Notes under the pieces: model-generated | The model's input: only the letters and a program-made list of their open reading frames with translations | What the model was told of the DNA's origin: nothing | The model's database searches: none | Part shown: positions 48,624 through 62,300 of the stretch, piece by piece | Layout: each line of letters opens with the position of its first letter | Position numbering within the stretch: position 1 is the first letter of the stretch | Virus record (IMG/VR): IMGVR_UViG_3300031857_000007 | Length of the DNA: 64,000 nt | Source of the DNA: a virus | Taxonomy: Duplodnaviria; Caudoviricetes | Strand: one strand, 5' to 3' | Made by a program: the position numbers and the translations under genes

Positions 48624-51128
48624 TTAGGCAAGTGCAATAACTCTTAATTGTCTAAATCTTGGAGGGTATGTTTGATTTGTTGAAGTTCCTATTAACTTAA
48701 CACTAAAATATCTAAATGCCGGTAATTGGTCTATAGTAAATTCATGCTCAATAAATTCAAGTTGATTGGCAAAAAATCCTCTTTTAGTGCTTTTTGGTCT
48801 TTTTCTGTCCGGTCTTCCACTATTTTTTGATGTATCGACAACTTTTTTGATAGTTTCTGGACTTGGAGAAATTGAAGTTTCTCCGACTATTGATAGATTG
48901 TCATATCCTGGGAATGGATAATAAATCAGTTCTTCTTTTGGATCGTTAGCAATTGCAAATAAAGCCCTTATATCACTATCCACATTTACATATGCATTTA
49001 CATATAATTTAATGGAAGTTGCTGGAGTTTCTAGTGAAATTGGTTTCGTTGCATATACAAATGCGGTTGGATCATCTTTAAGAGTAGACACTCTCTCATC
49101 TTCTACATAATCTTCAATGACATTATTAATTCTATTAGACGTTAAAATCATACCAGATCTATGAAGATCTATAACTGGAGAAATATAAGTATTTGCTGTC
49201 AATAGTCTCATATTTAAAGTAAATGATTTTTTGCCTGGCAGTGTAGACAGTTTACTATTTTCATTTACTTTAGAGCATATTAATCTTGGCGAATTTAAAT
49301 AATTGTTCGCATTTAAATTAATTTCTTCAAAACCCTGATCTGAGAAAGACTCTTCATTTCCGCTTACACTTGTTCCACTAACAGTTCTTATTGAAGCATT
49401 TATTTTAGTTCCATTAAGAGTTAATGTTTCGATATTTGGTCTAATAATTTCATATTGTATATTTTGTGATGCATTAACTCTAGATCCACCTGCAGATTTT
49501 GTTTCATTCAAATATAACTTAGGAAAACTTGCTCCTGTAGATCTATCAATGCCATTAGAACTAGTATCTATTTTTATATGATAATGATCAAGTCCTATAG
49601 ATTCACTAACAGTAGAGTCGCCAAGACTATGATCTTTATTAATCCTCCTCAATGAAACTGATCCAAGTTCATATTTGTATATTTGAGTTCCTGTTGTATA
49701 AGAAGACGCAACGGTTTGGTCAACGGATCTTGTTATTCCAGTTAAAGCGCCAGTAGAAGTTCCTGAGTATGAAATAATTTCATCTCCAATTCTTGCGTAT
49801 CCTAAATTGGATGTTCCAACTCCAACATTTTCAAATGTACCAAATACTGATTCATCTTCGACTAAGATATCTGCAGTTGAAGATAGATCATAATTTGCCA
49901 TTAATTTTGACGGAATTGTATCTGGCAAAACATTTGAAATCGAAACAGTATTTGTAGGTGAGTGCATTCCATGATTTTTGTGATTTACTTTAATATGTAA
50001 ACCATCACTTTGAAGTTCGATTGTACTTGCAAGAACGTTAGATCCCGTTGCCTTTAGATCCGTAGTTATTCCAGAATTATTTACATACTGCAAAGTATTT
50101 CCTACACCAGTCAAAAATTCTCCTTGAACCTGGTCTACGATAAGTTCATTAATTCCTGATAGAGAACTTACCGATAATCTAATATTTCTTCCTAATGTAT
50201 CATTTCCAATTTGATTTGCGGTTAGGATATCACCAACAATATATCCTGTTCCGCCAGATTGAATTGTTGCAGCAACAGCAACACCATTAGATATATGAAT
50301 ATTTGCTGTCGCATTTTTGCCGGTACCAGTCACACTAGTTAAAGCTACTCCAGCAAAAGTTCTATTTCCCGAAGACGGTGTATATCCAATTCCAGCATTT
50401 ACAATTGTTAAATTTCCACTGCAAGATCCTGCATATCCAACATAATTAGCAGTTACACTAGAATTTCTTTGGACAATTGTATTTCCTAGTGTTGGTAGAT
50501 CACTTGTCGATAAAGTTGTCCCCAATCCAACTTTAACTTTCCTCGAATTTAAAAATAGTGGTCTTTTTACTAATCTTGCTACTTCTCCATTTCCTGTAGA
50601 TAAATCTGGATTGTAAAAATTTACATCTCCAATTACACCAAAACTAGCTCTATAAAGTTTGAACTTTAAATCGTCAAAATCACTTGGATTCCAAGTTATT
50701 CCATTTTGTGATTTAAAAATAGAACCAGAAAGAGGTTGTTTTGTTACTACAATTTGTTTAGATTCTAGTTGAGTTTGTGACTCGGTATCAATCTCTCCCA
50801 ATCTAGATAACCAGACTAGATACTCACTTGAGTTTGATAACAAACATATACAATGAAATTCTGATCCAGATAGATAAATCGGTGACTTGAATGTTACTCG
50901 CGTGGCCACTGATCCATCGTCGGATACATTTACATCTTTAGGATCTACTACAATCTCACTAAATGGATATACTTTATTCGATGGAAACCCCAAATTCATT
51001 GGTCTCAATTGAACCGTTACTGGAAGTTCCGGATCTTTGGAGAAAAAATAAAGATCAACAGAAGTTACAAATATTCCACTCTTTGGCTCTACATAAAAAG
51101 ATTGTGCTAATGGATCTACTAGTTTCAT
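48624..51128 (-). CDS. Virion structural protein, C-terminal part of a DUF4815-like family (834 aa)
   Basis: Starts MKLVDPLAQSF...TSVDLYF...LPVTVQLR, a motif I recognise as internal in full-length homologues; ends PPRFRQLRVIALA. Confidence 0.75.
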   Translation of the reverse strand: MKLVDPLAQSFYVEPKSGIFVTSVDLYFFSKDPELPVTVQLRPMNLGFPSNKVYPFSEIVVDPKDVNVSDDGSVATRVTFKSPIYLSGSEFHCICLLSNSSEYLVWLSRLGEIDTESQTQLESKQIVVTKQPLSGSIFKSQNGITWNPSDFDDLKFKLYRASFGVIGDVNFYNPDLSTGNGEVARLVKRPLFLNSRKVKVGLGTTLSTSDLPTLGNTIVQRNSSVTANYVGYAGSCSGNLTIVNAGIGYTPSSGNRTFAGVALTSVTGTGKNATANIHISNGVAVAATIQSGGTGYIVGDILTANQIGNDTLGRNIRLSVSSLSGINELIVDQVQGEFLTGVGNTLQYVNNSGITTDLKATGSNVLASTIELQSDGLHIKVNHKNHGMHSPTNTVSISNVLPDTIPSKLMANYDLSSTADILVEDESVFGTFENVGVGTSNLGYARIGDEIISYSGTSTGALTGITRSVDQTVASSYTTGTQIYKYELGSVSLRRINKDHSLGDSTVSESIGLDHYHIKIDTSSNGIDRSTGASFPKLYLNETKSAGGSRVNASQNIQYEIIRPNIETLTLNGTKINASIRTVSGTSVSGNEESFSDQGFEEINLNANNYLNSPRLICSKVNENSKLSTLPGKKSFTLNMRLLTANTYISPVIDLHRSGMILTSNRINNVIEDYVEDERVSTLKDDPTAFVYATKPISLETPATSIKLYVNAYVNVDSDIRALFAIANDPKEELIYYPFPGYDNLSIVGETSISPSPETIKKVVDTSKNSGRPDRKRPKSTKRGFFANQLEFIEHEFTIDQLPAFRYFSVKLIGTSTNQTYPPRFRQLRVIALA

Positions 51129-51170
51129 TTTTTTATCTGTTGATTTTTACTCAAGTTTATTACTATTAAT

Positions 51171-51178
51171 TATTTATT
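51171..51178 (-). promoter_or_regulatory. Late promoter variant AATAAATA for the 834-aa gene
   Basis: Intergenic, 43 bp upstream of the ATG at 51128. Confidence 0.6.
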
Positions 51179-51185
51179 TTTCTAG

Positions 51186-51587
51186 TTAAATAAAATTTTC
51201 AGCATTTTCTTCTCCATAATTTAAAGTCAATTCCTCACCAGCATCAATATCCCTAATAGCATAATGCCTCATTACTTCATTTACTTTATCTATTTCATAA
51301 TCTACATTTGGATCAAAACTATGATTATACAATCCACAAAAACCCATTCCTATAATACTAAATTCATTATCTAAATTGTAACTATAACTTACACAAGAAG
51401 GAGCATTATTTAATTCTTCTAAAGGTACTTTAAAGTAAGGAAATTCCTCTAAAATTTCATATTTTTTTATTGAATCTTTTGCAAAAACTCCCCATCTATG
51501 TATATTTGATCTTTGGACTATCATTTTTTCCGAAAATATCAAATCATTTAAATGCATTGACTTGAAAGACTCAACATTTCTTCTCAT
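51186..51587 (-). CDS. SET-domain methyltransferase (minimal, 133 aa)
   Basis: SNIHRWGVFAKDSIKKYEILEE, YNHSFDPN and AIRDIDAGEELTLNYG are the canonical SET motifs. Confidence 0.9.
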   Translation of the reverse strand: MRRNVESFKSMHLNDLIFSEKMIVQRSNIHRWGVFAKDSIKKYEILEEFPYFKVPLEELNNAPSCVSYSYNLDNEFSIIGMGFCGLYNHSFDPNVDYEIDKVNEVMRHYAIRDIDAGEELTLNYGEENAENFI

Positions 51588-51853
51588 ATAGTTTGACCAA
51601 TAATTTTTTTTAATGAATCCATCTCTTGCTTCATTTCCTTTAATGCTTCAATGATAACAGGAATTAGTTGTTTGTAATCAACAGCAAGATATCCATTATC
51701 TTGCATTTCGACCATTTCAGGAAATTCTTTTTGGACTTCTTGTGCTATAACTCCATAAGAATTTCCTGTCACACCGGTTATTTCTTTCATTTTATTATTC
51801 CACTCATAATATTTTCCATTTAATCTTGTTATTTTATCAAGATACAATCCCAT
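51584..51853 (-). CDS. Stand-alone C-terminal part of a peptidase S74 chaperone domain
   Basis: LDKITRLNGKYYEW...YGVIAQEVQKEFPEMV...LAVDYKQLIPVIIEALKE plus coiled coil; lacks the S-D-x-x-x-K start. Confidence 0.88.
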   Translation of the reverse strand: MGLYLDKITRLNGKYYEWNNKMKEITGVTGNSYGVIAQEVQKEFPEMVEMQDNGYLAVDYKQLIPVIIEALKEMKQEMDSLKKIIGQTI

Positions 51854-54800
51854 TATTTCAGATTAATACTAAACAATCTATTTAGTGCATTATTGATAGG
51901 TTGAATGTTGGTTTTTAAATTAATGTCACTCATACCCATACCACCACCACCACTACTACCGCCGCCACTGCTGCCGCCACTCATTCCTCCACCACTGCTA
52001 CCACCACTACTACCGCCGCCACTGCTGCCGCCACTCATTCCTCCACCACTGCTACCACCACTACTACCGCCGCCACTGCTGCCACCACTGCTGCCGCCAC
52101 TCATTCCTCCACCACTGCTACCTCCGCCACCGCCGCTCATAGAAGCTCCGCCAGCAGATCCGCCATTATTTCCACCACCACCACCACTCATAGAACCACT
52201 AGAATTTCCTCCTCTATTGCTCGAATTTGAATTGGAAGTCACAAATCCACCAGAACCAGAACTCATATTACTTCCACCACCCATAGAACCACCTGATATA
52301 ACAATACTTGTACCAACAGATCTAGTATTATTTTTGCCAACAAATCCGTCTTTAGATCTTTGAGTAGTCGTAACTTGTTGACCTACAGTAACTGACCTAT
52401 TAGTTCCTCCAGTTCTACTTACATTTGCAATAACTTTAGTATCAGTATTTCTAGATTTTACTCCAGACTGACTTAAAATATTATTCAGTTTTTCATCGCT
52501 AACAATTCTAGCATCTAACTTATCTTGTCTAATATCCTTATCTCGGGTCTTCCTCTCAAATCTTATATCGGCTGCAGTAAGAGTAACACCTTGTTGAGCG
52601 AATATTTGTTTAGCCTCTTGGGTGGAAATGCTCTTCTTAGATTCAAGTTCAGCATAGTTGTATTCTTTTCCTTGATATGTAACGGTTTGAAGTTCAACGG
52701 CAACTGTTTTTCCAGTTCCTCTTGCAGTTGTCAATAGGTACTCTACACCAGTTGTTGGTGCGACTGGAGGATTGGGAACATCAACTGGTTTAGATAGAGG
52801 AGTATCATTATCACCTCTTCCACCACCACTAACTGGTGCGGGAGAAGGAGGAATTGAAGGAACATTGATTGGAGTAGTTTCTACAACAGTATATCCATCA
52901 GAAACAACCGAAGTTGCATCGATGACTGTTTGGTTTTCAACTCTAACATTTCTTAAAGAAAGAACATTTTCTTGAGCCTTATTAACTTTACCTTCTGCAT
53001 AGAATTTTTCTTCTGCACTAGTAATACTTCCCTGTACTTGAGAATTTAGATTGCTACTTGTCAATCTGAATAATTTTGTTCCTGTTGTAAAATAAGGATT
53101 TGTATTGATGTTTGGATTTGGAATATAGAAAGATCCTATTATAACCCCAATACTATCAGTAATTAATCTGACATCTGCAACTGTTGCTTCAGCTCCGCTA
53201 GTTTGTCCTTTTAACTTCATTCCTGGAAGAACATATCCATAATATAAACCCTGTGATTGATATGCTAAACTATATGTGTCTACATTTAGAGTAGTTGAAG
53301 TTGTAGAATACTCAGAAGGTAAAAATTCGTTTCTATTATATGGATTTGAAACATAGATATCTGAAGGATTATTATATGGACCATACTTATGATTAGAAGA
53401 ACTTACTCTAAAAGATATTGAAGGACTTTCTTGAGTATCTTGTGAAGAACCTTCGATATAACCTTTAACAGTTTCTCCAACTACAAATGATCCAAACTGC
53501 ATAGAAACTTCAATTAGTTTTGGAACAATAAATCTATTAATATCCTTTCCGTCAAAAAACGCATATACTCTTGTAGAGGGTTTTAATCTCTTTGCAACAA
53601 ATTCAATATTTCTAGATCTCATGTATGGAATTATATCCGTACTTAGAATCTTATCGCCAAGAGAAACTGTACTAAATTCTGCTTTAGTGCTAGTTCTTAA
53701 TCCTTTTCTAGCGGCTGTTCCACTAGCCAATGTAATATCATACGTTTCTTGGAAAGTATTGCCATACTCATCTTGAACAACTTCAGTTTGAGTTTGTTTA
53801 GTGGTTCCTGTCCAATTAGTTTCCCAAGATCCCCAAATTACGGGTCCAAAACCAGTTTGCTTATCTAAATCAGCAATGCTGATTTGAGAGAAAGTTTCTG
53901 TATAATTGCCTTGTACATTAATATTATTCGCTGACAATCTTACAGTATCAACCCAAATATCAGAAGAAGGTGTTAACTCTATGGTACCATTGTAATAAGC
54001 AACTCTATATGGAGCAACACTTTCAACTCTTGTGCCATAAGGTTGATCTATTTCTAAAACCTCAGTATAATCTAGTGTTATTACATCGCCAGTTCTCTTA
54101 ATTCCAGTTCCAATCAAATCGGTCACATATCCAAGATCTGCTGTTGGATCATATACTCCATCAATTCCAACAAATGAAGTTGATCCTAAAAGTAAGTCAA
54201 TTGAAGTTGTATAAGGAGAAGGTCTTAGTTCTGAGTTTTTGACATCAATACTATTCTTTACTATCGTTTTCTTTAGTTGAGACTTAGTATCTGAAAAATC
54301 ATCGACAAAGAAACCGCACTTAAATCGGTTCAATCCATTTGTGTCTCTAATTTGTAGATTGGAAGTATCACTTTCCAGAAGAGACAATGAAGTATAGTAT
54401 TCTAGATTTTTAATTCTATTTTCTAAACTAGAGATATCAACCATTCTATATCTCTTATGCTCCATCATGCTTATGTTAATGGAACTTAGATCACACAAAT
54501 ATGCGGGAAGTAGCATTGTTGCAACTTCTATAGCATCATCTGCTGGTAGTGGTGGTTGAGGATTATCTGAGGGTTCTCCTTTACTTAACTGCAAATATCC
54601 TTCTTTAGTTAAGAAAATTTTATCTATTCTAGGCAAATAATAAGAATAATCTAATAGTATTGACTCATCTGAAGCTAAAATATTAGATGCAGAATTTCCG
54701 CTAGAAGTAAATGATCTTGCCAAAAACTCAAATGGTGATCTGGATCCAGAAGTTACGGAATAATTTGATACTCTAGGTCTAATATCAATAATATCACTTG

Positions 54801-57800
54801 ACTTAACTCCATTAATTGCAGGTAAATCACAATAATCAAATTGGTTATATGAATTTATTATTGTAATATCCCCAGTGTCTGATGGCAGATAACTTGCAGA
54901 CTCAAACAATATCTTCAATCTTCTTGTTGGCTCTGAAGATGTAGTCTTTCTTACTATTCTGGAGTAATCATAAATCGTATTTGTCTGACCATTTTCAAAA
55001 GTAAAACTATTTGTAATATTCTGATCTCCAGATTCTACTTCTGTTATTATTGCTTGTATTCCAGATTCTTTAAATTTTACGGTTTCACCAACTTTAAATC
55101 TATTCTCGTTTAAGTATATTAAAGAAATTTTTAGATCATTTAGTTTTTCAGAATAGATAGCTACTGCATTACTTTCTTTTCCTACAATTTCTTCTCCAAT
55201 CAATAAATCGCCAGTTTTATTTGTTGGACCGGAAAGAGATATCATACTAATCGCAGGAAGATCTGGATTAGATGTATCATTGGACTCAAAAATACCAATT
55301 ATTTTGGTTACATCTGGTTCCATCAAGCATATGTCACTATCCTGAACTCTAGTGCCATATGGATAATTTCCATATGTCAATCCGTCATTAAATGTAGTTG
55401 ATCCGATTCCAGATCCTTCGTATTTTGATTTGTCAATTATAATTGATCTTACTCTATTTCTATTCTTAACCTTTTCTTTGATGTTAACTTTTCTTAGAGT
55501 TGCTATTAATCTAGCAGTTGTATTTGACCCTAATCCATTTATTGTAAGTTCTGTAGATCCGGAAGTAAATACAAATTTATCTGCACTTAAATTTTCTGTT
55601 TGTCCATCATATCTTATCAATACGTATCTTTCTTCATCAAATGGTAAAAAGGTTTCATTACTTCCAGCAACTATAGTTCCCGTTGAATTTGATGTGATAT
55701 TGACAATAAATTCTTTTCTGATGGTTAAATTTGAATTCTCTAAATCTACAGAAGATATGTTTTGATTTGGTAATACTGTATATAAAGTATTATCGGTTGA
55801 AGACTGGAATCTTGAAGTTAAGATATTAAAATCGCTAGGATTAATAATTGTTGTTGGCAAATCTCCTTCACATACACCAATAACTTTGTTTACTGCACTA
55901 ATTCGGATAGAATTTTGAAATACTGCCTCTATTCTTGCGTATGAGACTGTGGACAACCCAGGATTAGAGTAAGATACAATATTTCCTACTGTAGCTATAC
56001 CGGAAAATATAAATGACGAGGAAGAAACAGTGCTTATTCCACCACTTCCTGCAGTTATATTTACTTGTCCAATATTAATAGAAGGATATTGTTTTACATC
56101 TGCAGTAAAAGTTGAAGCAGAACCAACAACTCCATACAGAGATTTGATGTCATTTGGATAATAATCCGTTATTGCTGTAGAAACTCTGCTTATACTTTCG
56201 GTACCATTGAATATAATTTTTTCGCCAACTATAAAATTACCTTTGGTATTGTATGCAGTAATGATACCAGAATTGCTAGCATCAAATCTTAAAAATCCAA
56301 CAGCTCCGCTAGATTTTCCTTTAATATGAACAGAATTACTTAAAGATATTGGTTCATTTAAAAATATTTCAGTATATGTTTGAATATCATAAAGAGATAT
56401 ATCCCACTCATTAATATCTGGATATGCTGTACTATATGATCCCGATTCTAAAGCAAAATCATATACTCTTGCGAGTCCAATCTCTTTTCCTGAAGCAGTT
56501 TTTTGATCAGATCCAATCCTAGAATTTCTTAAACTTAAAGTATATGAAGTTGCAATCCCTAAGCTTGGGGATCCATAAACTCTATTTAAGGTAAATGTTG
56601 GTCCGGTTACATAATTAATACTTCTATTTTGTAATTTTTTAGTTGTCCTAGGCTTTTCAAAATCAATAAAAGTTGGAGATATGGTTTCTATCTCATATCC
56701 TCTAACAAAAGCTTTTAGTGGAGATATTTTGTAAGTACCAAGATCCTCTGAAGGTACTTTTCCATCATATGTTATCTGATCTTCTGTAAATAACCCATTG
56801 TTGCCCTTAAGATCGTTTAATGATTCTTGTACACTTAGTTTTGGTTGTACTACATAATAATCACCAGACTCTTCATAAGTCCTTCTGGCAAGTTCTTTTT
56901 GTAAAATATTATATTGTGGAGTATTAGATACTGATCTAAGAACACCATTCTCAACTTCTAGAAGTTGAACAAAATTTTCAACATCTTTTACACCTAAAGG
57001 AACCTTAGAAATTACTGCTTTTATAGATAATCTATCGGCACCTGGAGCAGAATAATTCGAAAATCCCTGTGCATTATCATTCAGCGATTTATCTTTATCT
57101 GAAGTAATAATATCTTCAAAGATTTCAAATCCAACTTTATAACTAGGAGTATTTGAGTATTGGTCTAATAGTATTGTTTGTTCTGGTACTTCAACAAAAC
57201 AACCTCTTAAAAAGTAAACTCCAGAAGAAATTATAACCGCAGAAGAAGGTGAATTACAATCTACAGAAATTGTGGACGCAATTCCCTCTCCATCTTGAAA
57301 TATTACTGATTGTTCTCTATTTAAAGAACTTTTTGTTGTTAGTGCCCCTTCAATTAATAAAATTTCTCCATCAGCAAATCCTTCATAACTATTAGTTTGA
57401 GAATCTGAATTTAAATAGTTTACATATAATGTATTATTTCCTCGATCCGAATTTGTAAAGTCTAGTACACCAATTACGGTTGCTCTTACTCCAGAATTCT
57501 GGCCCCTAAGAGTTCTTCCAATTAAACTTGGCAAATATGCAATAACATTGGTTCCCAAATACAAATTCTGAAGTTCAACAGCTTTATAACTATCAACATA
57601 GTTTACGCCACCAGGAATTACAACAGAACCTTCCTTGAAAAAATGATTTCCAAATTGTTCAATTTGATTTTGTAAAATGGATTGAATTGTTGTTAATTCT
57701 CTAGCTTGTACAGGGTACCCTGGTTTAAATAGTACCCTATAGTATCCATTTATTGCATCAAAATCATCAAAATAAGGTGATACATTGAGATTAGTTTCCT

Positions 57801-57807
57801 GGGGCAT
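51853..57807 (-). CDS. Large virion structural protein, N-terminal part of a DUF4815-like family (1984 aa), ending in a Gly/Ser linker and an S74 start motif
   Basis: MPQETNLNVSPYFDDFD...VQARELTTIQSILQNQ; APGADRL; directly after gp8; C-terminus ...GGGMGMSDINLKTNIQPINNALNRLFSINLK. Confidence 0.8.
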   Translation of the reverse strand: MPQETNLNVSPYFDDFDAINGYYRVLFKPGYPVQARELTTIQSILQNQIEQFGNHFFKEGSVVIPGGVNYVDSYKAVELQNLYLGTNVIAYLPSLIGRTLRGQNSGVRATVIGVLDFTNSDRGNNTLYVNYLNSDSQTNSYEGFADGEILLIEGALTTKSSLNREQSVIFQDGEGIASTISVDCNSPSSAVIISSGVYFLRGCFVEVPEQTILLDQYSNTPSYKVGFEIFEDIITSDKDKSLNDNAQGFSNYSAPGADRLSIKAVISKVPLGVKDVENFVQLLEVENGVLRSVSNTPQYNILQKELARRTYEESGDYYVVQPKLSVQESLNDLKGNNGLFTEDQITYDGKVPSEDLGTYKISPLKAFVRGYEIETISPTFIDFEKPRTTKKLQNRSINYVTGPTFTLNRVYGSPSLGIATSYTLSLRNSRIGSDQKTASGKEIGLARVYDFALESGSYSTAYPDINEWDISLYDIQTYTEIFLNEPISLSNSVHIKGKSSGAVGFLRFDASNSGIITAYNTKGNFIVGEKIIFNGTESISRVSTAITDYYPNDIKSLYGVVGSASTFTADVKQYPSINIGQVNITAGSGGISTVSSSSFIFSGIATVGNIVSYSNPGLSTVSYARIEAVFQNSIRISAVNKVIGVCEGDLPTTIINPSDFNILTSRFQSSTDNTLYTVLPNQNISSVDLENSNLTIRKEFIVNITSNSTGTIVAGSNETFLPFDEERYVLIRYDGQTENLSADKFVFTSGSTELTINGLGSNTTARLIATLRKVNIKEKVKNRNRVRSIIIDKSKYEGSGIGSTTFNDGLTYGNYPYGTRVQDSDICLMEPDVTKIIGIFESNDTSNPDLPAISMISLSGPTNKTGDLLIGEEIVGKESNAVAIYSEKLNDLKISLIYLNENRFKVGETVKFKESGIQAIITEVESGDQNITNSFTFENGQTNTIYDYSRIVRKTTSSEPTRRLKILFESASYLPSDTGDITIINSYNQFDYCDLPAINGVKSSDIIDIRPRVSNYSVTSGSRSPFEFLARSFTSSGNSASNILASDESILLDYSYYLPRIDKIFLTKEGYLQLSKGEPSDNPQPPLPADDAIEVATMLLPAYLCDLSSINISMMEHKRYRMVDISSLENRIKNLEYYTSLSLLESDTSNLQIRDTNGLNRFKCGFFVDDFSDTKSQLKKTIVKNSIDVKNSELRPSPYTTSIDLLLGSTSFVGIDGVYDPTADLGYVTDLIGTGIKRTGDVITLDYTEVLEIDQPYGTRVESVAPYRVAYYNGTIELTPSSDIWVDTVRLSANNINVQGNYTETFSQISIADLDKQTGFGPVIWGSWETNWTGTTKQTQTEVVQDEYGNTFQETYDITLASGTAARKGLRTSTKAEFSTVSLGDKILSTDIIPYMRSRNIEFVAKRLKPSTRVYAFFDGKDINRFIVPKLIEVSMQFGSFVVGETVKGYIEGSSQDTQESPSISFRVSSSNHKYGPYNNPSDIYVSNPYNRNEFLPSEYSTTSTTLNVDTYSLAYQSQGLYYGYVLPGMKLKGQTSGAEATVADVRLITDSIGVIIGSFYIPNPNINTNPYFTTGTKLFRLTSSNLNSQVQGSITSAEEKFYAEGKVNKAQENVLSLRNVRVENQTVIDATSVVSDGYTVVETTPINVPSIPPSPAPVSGGGRGDNDTPLSKPVDVPNPPVAPTTGVEYLLTTARGTGKTVAVELQTVTYQGKEYNYAELESKKSISTQEAKQIFAQQGVTLTAADIRFERKTRDKDIRQDKLDARIVSDEKLNNILSQSGVKSRNTDTKVIANVSRTGGTNRSVTVGQQVTTTQRSKDGFVGKNNTRSVGTSIVISGGSMGGGSNMSSGSGGFVTSNSNSSNRGGNSSGSMSGGGGGNNGGSAGGASMSGGGGGSSGGGMSGGSSGGSSGGGSSGGSSGGGMSGGSSGGGSSGGSSGGGMSGGSSGGGSSGGGGMGMSDINLKTNIQPINNALNRLFSINLK
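51925..52280 (-). repeat. Gly/Ser/Met low-complexity linker with an exact 54-bp tandem duplication
   Basis: Unit gccactgctgccgccactcattcctccaccactgctaccaccactactaccgcc starts at 51964 and again at 52018; a degenerate third copy follows. Confidence 0.9.
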
Positions 57808-57813
57808 AACCGT

Positions 57814-59367
57814 TTAGAATTGCAAAATAACTTTTATATCTTCTTTTTGATTTGAAGACCTTGTTATTGAAGGTCTATTGTCAACATAAATTATATTTCC
57901 AGAATATTTTTTAACTTCTGGATCAGAAACTCCATCGACAAAAGTTTGTCCAAGATAATATGTCCTACTATTTATTGTAGTTGAGACACCACTAAAACTT
58001 GTGTCTATACCTAGATTGACACTTCCTCCATAAATTGTTAGCGAACCTCCGGATATTGGATTTGCACTAAATTCATTCATATCATATCCATAGATTGGTG
58101 TCGTATTTCTTGATCCATCACTATTAAAACCAACAAGAGTTCTATCTTGCCAGTATTTAAGAACTCCAGTGTCTTGGTCATAGAAAACAACCCTACCAAC
58201 AGCCGTTATGCCAAGACCTATAGTTTGAGTAATAAAACTATTTTCAGTAAAGACCGCTGTGCTATATCCACTACCAACAAGTTTTAATGCTGACAAACAA
58301 CTTGCTTTAGATAAAGTCAATATTGAATCCGAATTAAAACTTTCTGGATTTTCTATAATTCCAATTCTAGCAATCTTATTGCCTACAACAAAATCTGGAT
58401 TTTGTATATCATTTTCAATTCTAGAATAAATTAAGATATTGTATGCGCCCAGTTCTCGGTATATGTCATATCCATGTCCACCTTTTGGTGGAATTATTAA
58501 ATCAAACGTTGGTCTTGTAGAACCAGTTGGAACATTTCCAGATTCCAAATCAATTGTTCCGTATGTATATCCAGATCCACCTTTAGTTATCGTAACAGTA
58601 TCAACTTTAGAATCATTATTGACCACAATAGTAGCTTCTGCTCCAGATCCATCACCCTTAATAGGAACCCTGGTATAAACTCTATTTGCAGTTCCTATAC
58701 CAATACCTCTATTGGTAATAACTGCAATTTTTAGTTGACCACTAGTAGAAGCATTGTCCCTAACTGCAAAATTTTCTGCACTATTTTCCCAATCTGTTGG
58801 AACGGGAATAAAATTAATAGAATCAAATTTTACAATGTCACTTGGTTTAATTGTATAGAGATATTTCCACACATATCCATCTCCACTAGAACCTGCAGAT
58901 CTTGGTTCTAAGTCCGTAAATGTTGGTTCGTCTAAAGATGGTCTTCCTGTAGGATTTTCTGGATCTGTTCCATTATGTAGACAAATATACACTCTAAAAT
59001 CACTATTTACAACATAAAAATTTGAAGAATATATACTAGTAGCATTTGAAGGTTTAGATGTATTTGTCCTGCTAATATCATGACGATACATATCATAAGT
59101 GGTTCCGGAAGACCATGTTATTTTTCTAACCACTTGACGCACATCGTCACTTCCAATTTTTTTTAATGCTACGATAGTATCCCAATAATCGGATTCTTCG
59201 TTAAAATTATCTTTAGGTGCAAGTGGTGAAGTATCCCAAGTGGAACTATAATCTGTTGCATTGGTCAAACCAACAAATGCATAATAAGAATTTGCTGAGG
59301 AAGTTGCTGCAGAAACAAAATTTTTTGCATTTAATATTCTAAATTGATCAGTTATAATTGCAGACAT
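57814..59367 (-). CDS. gp8: Baseplate wedge subunit gp8
   Basis: MSAIITDQFRILNA, YDMYRHD, DGYVWKYLYTI, C-terminal KYSGNIIYVDNR...QKEDIKVILQF. Confidence 0.92.
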   Translation of the reverse strand: MSAIITDQFRILNAKNFVSAATSSANSYYAFVGLTNATDYSSTWDTSPLAPKDNFNEESDYWDTIVALKKIGSDDVRQVVRKITWSSGTTYDMYRHDISRTNTSKPSNATSIYSSNFYVVNSDFRVYICLHNGTDPENPTGRPSLDEPTFTDLEPRSAGSSGDGYVWKYLYTIKPSDIVKFDSINFIPVPTDWENSAENFAVRDNASTSGQLKIAVITNRGIGIGTANRVYTRVPIKGDGSGAEATIVVNNDSKVDTVTITKGGSGYTYGTIDLESGNVPTGSTRPTFDLIIPPKGGHGYDIYRELGAYNILIYSRIENDIQNPDFVVGNKIARIGIIENPESFNSDSILTLSKASCLSALKLVGSGYSTAVFTENSFITQTIGLGITAVGRVVFYDQDTGVLKYWQDRTLVGFNSDGSRNTTPIYGYDMNEFSANPISGGSLTIYGGSVNLGIDTSFSGVSTTINSRTYYLGQTFVDGVSDPEVKKYSGNIIYVDNRPSITRSSNQKEDIKVILQF

Positions 59368-59380
59368 TTTTAACGTTTTT

Positions 59381-59388
59381 TATTTATT
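59381..59388 (-). promoter_or_regulatory. Late promoter variant AATAAATA for gp8
   Basis: At the gp7 stop, 14 bp upstream of gp8. Confidence 0.55.
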
Positions 59389-62300
59389 TATGAATTATAA
59401 TTAAAGTATCTCAATGGATTTAATCTAATTAAAATTGGATTAGTTGACAAACCAGTTGTTCCATTGTTATTGTACGAATTAAATGCTGTTGGATTAGTTC
59501 TGCTATTTGTAGAAACTTTTCCCCAACTATAATTGCCATAGTATCCTGTGTTAGCAATTCCTGTTAACCCATTATAAGAAGAAACTGAAGTTATGACTCT
59601 TGAAACATAAGTTACACCTATACCAGGTATACTTCTTGTTACATTAGAAACAGAAATAACCTCATAAACATTGTCCAGAAACTCCGTGCCAACGCCAACG
59701 ATAGATTTATCTCTCCTTAAAGAAGTTACACCATTTCCAACATTTGATTTATTTACTACGAAATAATATCCAGTAGAAATTCCACTAATTGTTATTGCTG
59801 TTCCTACAATCGAAGAATTTCTCAATATTGAATTTTGTGGAATATAGAAATCAAATGCAATAGCAGTGGAAGCAACTCCAACTACTGAAGTTGTTGCAAC
59901 ACCAACAATTCTTCCAAAATCACCCTCATATGAAACATATTCAATAATCTCTGAAATTGGTTCTGGATCTTCAATTAAAACAACAGGAGGATTTGTTGTT
60001 GTATATCCAATTCCACCATAATTTATTTGAATTGAAGTTACTACTCCCGCAGAAATAAATGCATTTGCAGAAGCTCTTAGAGTGGTGCCCAATCCGACAG
60101 GATTTGCAATAGTAACTGTTGGATTTGTTGAGTATCCAATTCCGCCACTTGTAATATTAATAGAACTTATCGTTCCTGCAATTGATACTATTGCGGTACT
60201 AGCAGCCGATACTTTTTGATCTTGTGAAGTCAATTTGACTGTGTAGTAGATTGAAGAAGATGTATTCTCCTTAGCACTATCAAAGAATGACTTAACACTT
60301 TCCACAAAAATAAATGTAGATCCTACTCCAACACTTTGTATTATATTTGTTGATGGATTTACTAAGGGTTCATACCATTCTCTGTTTTTGGAAATTTGTA
60401 TGCCGTCAATAATAACATCCTCTGTTTGTCTGCACCAGATTACAGGTCTTAAAAGATTTCTATTTGAAGAAACACCAATATTAGAATATGGGTTTGTCAA
60501 AACACTATCCGAAGAATTAACTCTTGTGACCAATCTATTTGTTTGATTTAAACTAAGATCTTCACTATAAATTCTTAACTGATCTCCAACTTTAACAGTT
60601 TCTAAAATATCAACAGAAACTACATCGACACCTTCAGTTCCCTTATAGAAAAGAATTTTAGAAGTATCTCCTGCTCTAGGTGCTTCTACAAACTTGATAA
60701 TGCTTCCACCTTCAAATATGTAGGATTGTCCTGGTGTTTGTAAAATATCATTTATAAACACTAGCAGTGTAGATTCTACATTAATGTTTGATCCTTTTTT
60801 GGATCTTATTGACTGTTGAACTCCATCAATTTTTATTGGGAAAGTATTAACTTGACCATCAAATAATTCATCTATATTATCAATAACTTGAAAACTTCCA
60901 AGAGACCAACCATTAAACTGGTCATTATAAATTCTATCGATTGATAATTCAAATGGTTGAAGATTCTTTGTTATATCTGTTGGAATGCCAGTGGATCCAC
61001 CATACTCAATAGTTAATTTTTCACCCTGACCGTATCCATACCCATTATTTTGTATCTCAAAGTCAATGATACTTGATCCTTGTCCAACTACAATACTAAT
61101 AGTTGCTCCAGTACCAAATCCAGGAGTTGAATTTGTGGAATAAACTAAAGGAATATTTGAATATGATAATGGAGAATCAAAAATTACCTTTGGTGGATTA
61201 CTTGAAGTATATCCAATTCCAGGATTTGTTATTGAGACACGAACAATATTTCCATTACTAACTGAAGCAAATCCAACATAGGTTATATTTGTAGAAGTTA
61301 ATGATTCTGTATACACACCAACATTAACAGTTGTTTGAATTCCAGATCTATATCCAGATCCACTATTTCCAATACTTATTGCTGAGATTGTTCCTGCAGA
61401 AGAAACGATTGCAGTTCCACCTGCAGCAACAAGAGGTTGATATCCAAAACCTTTAGTGGAACCAACAGAAACAATCTGTCCTCCGAATGGTAAATTTGTG
61501 CTAGTAATATCATCTGGATCATATGATCCATTAAATGTTATTGAAGTTATACCTGCATTTTCTGTTAATGTATAGTCTCCTACAATATCAACTACTCCAA
61601 GTCTTTGTGGTCCTTGGAATATTTGATTGATCAGAATTACCGCATTATCTGAAGAAATTCCTGAGATATTTTTGCCTTCTGATCTTAATGTAAATGTTGA
61701 CTTAATTCCAGTAAACCCTTCAGAAATATCGTCAAAAATATAATTTTTACTATAAGGATCACTTGTAGAATTTGTAGCGGAAGACCTCATAAAAGATCTA
61801 CCACTAAATGTTGAATGAGTAGTTATTCCTGTATAGTCTCTATCATCTGGTCTATTACTATCAGTTCCTATAGGAGATTTTCCATAAGGTGCTTTAAAGA
61901 AATTAATAGTATTTCCAACAATATTATAATCTCCTAATATCTTTTTAATTAAACTGCCAACAGTGTGAATTCCAATATTTGTACCCATCCAACCACGTTG
62001 GACTTGTACAATATTAGTACTTCCAAGTCCTACAGTATTCAATCTCATAATTTCATCATCGACCATAATTAAGTCATCGCTGAAGAATGAAGTAATTCCT
62101 GAGAATTTGACTCTATCATCAACGATTTCAACTGTTTTCGCGCATGTCGTAGTAATAGAAGAACCAACAATAGGAGATTGAATTACATTATCAATTGTCA
62201 CTAATACTCTAGAATTTTGTCTCTTAGAAGTAAATGAGTGAACAGTTCCGATACCAAGTGAATTTAATTGCAGTGGAATTGGAACAGCCTTTAAAGCATC

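Follow-up and report, generated by a model that had tools for sequence, protein, structure and literature searches.

A minimal SET-domain gene inside a split baseplate gene of a T4-like phage, and a lysine-to-methionine switch in the tails of its neighbours

Introduction

To our knowledge, SET-domain enzymes have been studied almost solely as eukaryotic chromatin writers, together with a few bacterial effectors. In a T4-like myovirus, a gene for such an enzyme lies between the parts of a baseplate gene. This setting raises the question of what the enzyme acts on and how it is connected to the structural proteins encoded around it. The original prediction, made from this DNA, described a minimal SET domain coupled to structural genes and proposed as possible substrates the adjoining Lys/Arg-rich tail of a 1984-aa protein, a different protein of the virion, or a protein of the host late in infection.

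The source record is a 95-kb fragment, and the window analysed here is a 64,000-nt stretch of it. The nearest cultured relatives of the source phage are Synechococcus phages of the Kyanoviridae, with approximately 40-52% protein identity. Freshwater (lake) metagenomes from about 15 studies carry the source-phage sequence. The photosystem gene psbA was looked for in the 95-kb record and is not found there, so the record does not itself point to a cyanobacterial host. All long ORFs of the window are on the minus strand. Positions 50900-51975 are identical to the last letter in contigs from independent lake metagenomes, and the frame changes in this region are therefore not assembly errors. The features of the locus are listed in Table 1.

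Table 1. Features of the SET locus and its surroundings (window coordinates).
Feature	Position	Strand	Description
SET-domain methyltransferase gene	51186..51587	-	133 aa, no internal stops; identified by Pfam SET, profile and fold
SET GxG motif	51483-51500	-	HRWGVF, residues 30-35
SET NHSF motif	51315-51326	-	residues 88-91, within YNHSFDPN (87-94)
SET ELTLNYG motif with catalytic Tyr	51213-51233	-	residues 119-125, preceded by E (EELTLNYG)
VrlC C-part (VrlC-C)	48624..51128	-	834 aa; aligns to S-SM2 VrlC 1699-2519
Late-promoter-like ATAAATA	51171..51177	-	43 nt 5' of the VrlC C-part start, in the post-SET spacer
89-aa ORF (S74C)	51584..51853	-	S74 intramolecular-chaperone profile positions 17-57; Pfam Peptidase_S74 2.5e-9
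S74 first 25 residues	51856..51930	-	SDINLK..., Ser/Lys site; C-terminus of the 1984-aa protein; subthreshold match to Pfam S74 positions 1-25
Gly/Ser/Met low-complexity tract	51931..52296	-	122 aa: 60 Gly, 40 Ser, 9 Met, 0 Lys
Variable Lys/Arg-containing insert segment	52297..52749	-	residues ~1687-1837; candidate substrate of the original prediction
Pro-rich linker	52750..52887	-	homology to unsplit VrlC stops here
VrlC N-part (VrlC-N)	51853..57807	-	1984 aa, DUF4815; residues 1-1626 align to S-SM2 VrlC 1-1664
gp8-like baseplate wedge gene	57814..59367	-	first cistron of the inferred unit
Two overlapping late-promoter-like ATAAATA	59381..59391	-	upstream of gp8

Results

The SET protein

The 133-aa protein matches Pfam SET (PF00856) with 52.2 bits (E 9e-14; curated cut-off 22.4 bits) over profile positions 2-105 of 105. 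With HRWGVF, NHSF and ELTLNYG also present, the predicted minimal SET domain with all core motifs is borne out. The protein contains two cysteines only (residues 65 and 84), so it has no pre- or post-SET zinc cluster, in agreement with the predicted absence of post-SET cysteines. The prediction also drew attention to NHSF in place of NHSC. The NHSF motif is present, but it carries no significance because its fourth position is free to vary across the family (F, C, L, T, V, S or A, and K in vSET).

A database search finds 111 relatives of 83-157 aa, most of them 125-150 aa long. In an alignment of 25 of these, with identities down to approximately 30-45%, G33, N88, H89, E119 and Y124 are invariant. 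In SET enzymes these positions bind SAM and carry out catalysis. The relatives are not degenerate, a state that would have spoken against the original prediction. The phage SET copies are 45-77% identical to one another, and a single profile scan confirms 322 SET loci in viral contigs. Across hundreds of phage contigs the gene is under purifying selection. Residues 1-21 are conserved in the relatives, and residue 22, which is Met in the window, is Leu there. The database gene call (112 aa, start at M22) is therefore too short.

When the family profile is compared with solved structures, the top match is Schizosaccharomyces pombe Set7 (2e-21) and the second is vSET of the chlorovirus PBCV-1 (Paramecium bursaria chlorella virus 1; 2.3e-20). 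The AlphaFold model of the protein is confident, with a pLDDT of 86.5 and a pTM of 0.78. The top Foldseek match of this model is vSET (E 1.4e-9, 32% identity, TM 0.86 on the target). Foldseek returns 346 PDB matches at E <= 0.001, and 50 of 50 among the matches listed are SET-domain enzymes. A homodimer prediction scores 0.40, with the mark at 0.42, and is given no weight for or against a dimer. Among 109 longer candidates, none scores as a fused form of SET, which is a weak negative result. An apparent fusion of SET with its neighbour in locus L053 is rejected: it is an open alternative frame in high-GC DNA, and a stop follows SET.

The product of 51186-51587 is an intact, single-domain SET protein of the vSET type that is predicted to transfer methyl groups. 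It could be argued that the protein is not a lysine methyltransferase but is inactive, binds only, or acts on another nucleophile (His, N-terminal amine) or a non-protein substrate, as its domain is minimal and lacks a post-SET region. This is very unlikely. The SAM-binding and catalytic motifs are all invariant in relatives down to 30-45% identity, and vSET, which has the closest fold and a similar size and also lacks a post-SET region, is yet an active lysine methyltransferase (PMC7019647). The phage enzyme can be added to the minimal SET family as a new and well-supported case; its fold is ordinary and its genomic setting unusual.

The cellular SET proteins of Bacteria and Archaea share the Pfam SET domain and a similar length with the phage enzyme. 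They differ from it in sequence, with at most 38% identity, and in setting, as a Gly/Met tract of the kind described below adjoins none of 78 cellular SET loci. The closest chromosomal relatives (30-38% identity) are mostly from Acidobacteriota MAGs. A single-protein scan of 185,579 prokaryote genomes finds no close SET relatives, and a profile scan of prokaryote genomes finds more than 40% identity in just two contigs, both of which are mis-binned phage.

The split VrlC gene

VrlC is counted among the components of the baseplate (PMC4621102, PMC7029224). It is a single gene in the cultured cyanophages S-SM2 (2519 aa) and S-SCSM1 (2603 aa). In the window, the first two thirds of PHROG 358 are matched by the 1984-aa protein and the last third by the 834-aa protein. 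Because these two halves align to S-SM2 VrlC 1-1664 and 1699-2519, SET lies inside an insert of 1.75 kb that falls at a linker between domains. This insert consists, in order, of the Pro-rich linker, the Lys/Arg segment, the Gly/Ser/Met tract, the first 25 residues of S74, the S74C ORF and SET. A 57-nt spacer separates SET from VrlC-C.

The Gly/Ser/Met tract is partly a 54-nt tandem repeat, and its GMGM end is directly before the S74 serine. It is the sole Gly/Met tract of the 64-kb window in six frames. The first S74 piece is 93% identical in relatives. S74C comprises the C-terminal two thirds of the Peptidase_S74 domain. It overlaps the upstream stop by one base (TAATG), and the ATGA overlap with the SET start that was originally noted is real. 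Among SET-plus relatives S74C is 73-85% identical and is always a separate ORF with its own ATG.

Several other observations concern this region. The second S74 piece is better conserved (73-85%) than SET or VrlC. The S74 domain is split into two ORFs in every relative, with SET present or absent (L004-L026, L180-L204; window 51853-51935). The second piece starts at a conserved ATG (MG[F/L]YL...), and approximately 10 residues are duplicated between the pieces. A programmed frameshift joining the two pieces is rejected on the basis of the piece's own conserved ATG, this duplication, and an offset of -1 in the window vs +1 in relatives.

The VrlC linker of S-SCSM1 carries a PRP repeat. In one SET-plus subclade (L004:5258-6733, also L005 and L006), the linker insert contains a HINT/intein-like domain (Pfam PT-HINT 2.1e-5, just below cut-off). 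This HINT-like domain is a second self-processing module in the L004 linker, and L202 has a similar ...SHN motif before its tract. Metagenome contigs break inside the Gly/Ser/Met repeat (window 51975-52190). In two runs, contigs connect 52002 to 52190 through 67 letters, vs 187 in the window, which suggests natural length variants of the tract that are approximately 40 residues shorter.

Late expression

The motif ATAAATA resembles a late-promoter signal of the T4 type and can be used for operon mapping in the source phage. In the window it is on the coding strand in 22 of 25 copies, mostly 20-45 nt 5' of gene starts. All four full TATAAATA copies are on the coding strand, just 5' of gene starts. 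Between the motifs upstream of gp8 and the end of SET, the sole ATAAATA (57969-57975) is within the gp8 coding sequence. From the ATGA and TAATG overlaps and this placement of ATAAATA, we infer a late unit of gp8, VrlC-N, S74C and SET. SET would be its last cistron and would be made late, alongside baseplate proteins.

Genomic settings of phage SET genes

The neighbourhoods of phage SET genes are not random and are mostly late or structural. In lineage A, which is made up of low-GC T4-like myoviruses, the order is always S74C, SET, VrlC-C, with 4-nt overlaps or gaps of at most 19 nt. Lineage B comprises approximately 55 contigs of high GC, several of them about 41 kb long; here tail-fibre-like and virion structural genes are on one side of SET and a gene for a 700-950-aa protein is on the other. 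In lineage C (GC 0.43-0.50), SET ends a co-directional block; next comes a protein of either 200-360 aa or 968 aa and, beyond it, the large terminase. In lineage D, a marine phage group, a lone SET is found among small genes near DNA polymerase A. A megaphage copy has 38% identity. The predicted coupling to structural genes thus holds for lineages A, B and C but not for lineage D, where SET stands alone near the DNA polymerase. No Gly/Met tract is beside SET in lineage D or in the megaphage.

The large downstream neighbours (VrlC-C, the 787-aa protein and the 968-aa protein) share no homology beyond low complexity. The 968-aa neighbour in lineage C1 (L030:6494-9400) has a Gly/Met N-terminus and otherwise consists almost entirely of degenerate repeats of approximately 22 residues (ERLGIETTGAQQR...QERFAGETGL); it belongs to no known family. 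One lineage-B neighbour (L065:6362-8725) ends in a hydrophobic tail rich in Gly, Met, Ala and Ile that resembles a glycine-zipper membrane segment. Such a tail would fit an ejection protein or an internal virion protein.

Tails of the neighbouring proteins

In six frames of 1.0 Mb of phage loci, a tract was called wherever a 30-aa stretch was free of stops and contained at least three Met and no less than 40% Gly. Of 97 loci, 61 have a tract on the strand of SET and no more than 600 nt away from it. Among the 12 other tract calls in the 1.0 Mb, six overlap the SET end and the others are 2-2.5 kb downstream, two of them ending the same neighbour protein. In lineage A the tract forms the C-terminal tail of the upstream protein, and in lineages B and C it forms the N-terminus of the downstream protein. 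The tract-bearing neighbours of the three lineages are not homologous to each other.

In lineage A, all 13 distinct SET-plus tails end in a GMGM-type motif (one is GGMM) before the S74 serine, and Lys is absent from the last 60 residues in nine of the 13. The tails of the SET-minus sisters end in GGKK (KK directly before SD), GRGR, GSGR or GKR. One SET-minus tail is poly-Gly with Arg and Lys at places where its SET-plus relatives carry Met. Some lineage-A members have a Pro/Ala tract, with the Met motif limited to a terminal GGMGM. As the tract, S74 and SET together take up no more than 0.8 kb and may travel as a single block, linkage could account for the co-variation in this lineage.

The lineage-B neighbours share an anchor motif. 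In the 21 SET-plus N-termini that could be anchored, 50-92 aa precede this motif, with 9-18 Met and no Lys. In the 12 SET-minus members, a stretch of 9-11 aa similar to MGKKKKSKQ stands before the same anchor; it contains 4-5 Lys and, apart from its start, no Met. The lineage-B tree has one SET/tail change, on a short branch. Ser directly follows Met at 82% of 436 sites in the lineage-B tracts. The repeat unit of the tracts is [A/G]-M-S, and some lineage-B tracts are Gly-free and made of AMS units alone. The sequence MSAPA, equal to residues 27-31 of H3K27M, is present in 12 of 34 distinct lineage-B tracts.

In lineage C2, the SET-plus neighbours begin with Gly/Met arrays and the SET-minus homologues begin with MPKKDK, MSKGKN or MGKKKK. 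In lineage C1, the residue after Met is Gly and not Ser.

In three lineages, then, the presence of SET co-varies with a switch of the neighbouring tail from Lys/Arg-rich to Lys-free and punctuated by Met. This comparative signal seems not to have been described by anyone, and a search of one literature library finds no paper on a phage SET enzyme.

Gly/Met tracts (…GGGGMGGM, …GGMGGGGGK) are also found before S74 in other phage types, with no SET within 4 kb (L194:825-1067, L202, L203:4001-4237); these loci depart from the association with SET.

Candidate substrates

The Lys/Arg-rich tail of the 1984-aa protein does not fare well as a substrate. The segment at residues ~1687-1837 is not conserved even among close SET-plus relatives, and neither phmmer (window residues 1690-1850) nor a clade profile finds relatives of it. 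The 122 residues nearest to SET contain no Lys, and SET-plus tails have lost Lys in three lineages. As the enzyme is conserved and the segment is not, the segment is an unlikely substrate. A small helical, Lys-bearing domain common to the window insert and the lineage-B and lineage-C neighbours was considered and rejected, as phmmer is empty even for close relatives. A profile of a subclade motif matches lineage-A members alone and not the window, and Pfam gives just subthreshold HTH matches. A host protein or another virion protein is a possible substrate.

SET could instead methylate lysines of the structural proteins that the phage produces alongside it (baseplate, fibres, ejection proteins). 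The neighbouring tail, being flexible and exposed, would then have shed its Lys solely to escape unwanted methylation, with no docking of the enzyme. The late structural context in three lineages, the translational coupling, and the Lys-free SET-plus tails vs the Lys-rich tails of relatives are consistent with this. Avoidance predicts a change of Lys to Arg or Gln, or deletion, and not the growth of a 10-aa tail to 50-130 aa with regular Met-Ser units. In addition, no conserved Lys-bearing partner segment is found beside SET, and one phage group has SET in its replication module. This explanation is unlikely.

SET as an optional gene

An S74C scan finds ten loci in sister myoviruses (L192, L193, L195-L201, L204) in which VrlC and S74 are split alike and VrlC-C is directly after S74, with no SET. 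The split of the baseplate gene by the S74 element is therefore older than SET or independent of it. No SET is found anywhere in five SET-minus contigs, one of which, from lineage B, is 88% complete. On the VrlC-C tree, phages with and without SET are intermixed, and branches with good support require two changes or more. SET is an optional cassette gene.

A gene of this kind could be a free-standing moron aimed at a host protein and be unrelated to the Met tracts, if accessory genes and repeat-rich tails simply collect at shared module junctions and are passed on together in linked blocks. The two or more gains or losses on the VrlC-C tree are congruent with this, as are the solitary SET of the marine phage group, the SET-less Gly/Met tracts of L194 and L202, and the general hypervariability of VrlC linkers (the S-SCSM1 PRP repeat, the L004 HINT-like domain). 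Unrelated tracts do not account for the same Lys-to-Met direction in three lineages, with non-homologous neighbours and on either side of SET, or for the near absence of tracts elsewhere in a 1.7-Mb six-frame translation. The moron explanation is considered unlikely.

Discussion

Some functional link between SET and the tail of its neighbour is likely. The best reading, advanced tentatively, is that SET is made late and would dock to a protein of the virion by way of that protein's pseudo-substrate tail. K-to-M histones trap SET enzymes in a SAM-dependent manner, with Met filling the lysine channel (PMC5030085). EZHIP is a natural K27M-like protein that inhibits PRC2 likewise (PMC6513997). In the phages, the flexible tail of the neighbour may place its [A/G]-M-S units in the lysine channel of SET, in the manner of K-to-M histones and EZHIP with eukaryotic SET enzymes. 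This occupancy would dock SET on the virion protein or keep it silent there. A docked SET could travel with the particle, as vSET does in PBCV-1, and upon entry it could methylate a lysine of a host protein.

Among readings that account for the adjacency of the two genes, the direction of change, the expansion of the tract and the regular Met-Ser units, a pseudo-substrate tail is the simplest. The more specific form, in which the [A/G]-M-S units sit in the lysine channel as a multivalent pseudo-substrate and dock or silence the enzyme, is possible but carries rather low confidence. It is possible, but less likely than not, that phages independently evolved multivalent K-to-M tails of [A/G]-M-S arrays on virion proteins, which would capture their own SET by its lysine channel for particle loading and host delivery or for silence until release. 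The docking reading is weakened by the possible linked block in lineage A, the single change in lineage B, the Met-Gly order in lineage C1, the SET-less tracts of L194 and L202, the Pro/Ala tracts of some lineage-A members, and the absence of a tract in lineage D and in the megaphage. The residue preceding Met, which is Ala or Gly and not Arg as in H3, is a further point against it.

The closest known system is vSET (A612L of PBCV-1; PDB 1n3j / 3kma), which is likewise a virus-encoded single SET domain of approximately 120-130 aa without zinc clusters. PBCV-1 encodes vSET and carries it in its particles (PMC7019647), and packaging of this kind is proposed for the phage enzyme. Unlike vSET, the phage enzyme has an extra conserved N-terminal stretch of approximately 20 residues, and its gene is inside a split baseplate gene. 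A bacterial host is without histones, which excludes H3K27 as the target of the phage enzyme. S. pombe Set7 (5h6z) and Plasmodium falciparum PFL0690c (4rz0) are also minimal SET proteins with the same motif set (TM 0.79-0.80 on the target). They are cellular chromatin enzymes, unlike the phage enzyme, and are 22-34% identical to it.

The oncohistones (H3K9M, H3K27M, H3K36M) and EZHIP resemble the phage tails in having Met where related proteins carry Lys, within a flexible segment. In the phage tails Met is usually followed by Ser, as in K9-S and K27-S of H3. The phage tails are unlike the oncohistones in having many tandem units vs a single site, and in being encoded by the gene adjoining that of the enzyme; they are putative ligands. 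A further likeness is to Alt of T4, a protein-modifying enzyme that is made late with the structural proteins and delivered with the DNA. Alt has an unrelated fold and ADP-ribosylation chemistry, and the packaging of SET is hypothetical.

The locus belongs to a SET family of aquatic phages that is large, conserved and unstudied, with 322 viral contigs found by a single scan. The pattern across lineages makes the substrate question concrete, as it sets the Met-studded tail of a virion protein against the SET active site. The Lys-rich tails of SET-less relatives suggest the type of sequence that the enzyme recognises, which may aid a search for host targets. If the tail binds the SET active site, the lysine-mimic trick of cancer histones and EZHIP would be an old and recurrent viral device. 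The tail would then provide a route for loading a modifying enzyme into the phage particle, and it would supply minimal SET domains with natural ligands in the form of small peptides. The pair would be the first natural SET pseudo-substrate partnership outside mammals, where EZHIP is known, and the enzyme would be the first virion-tethered lysine methyltransferase in a bacteriophage.
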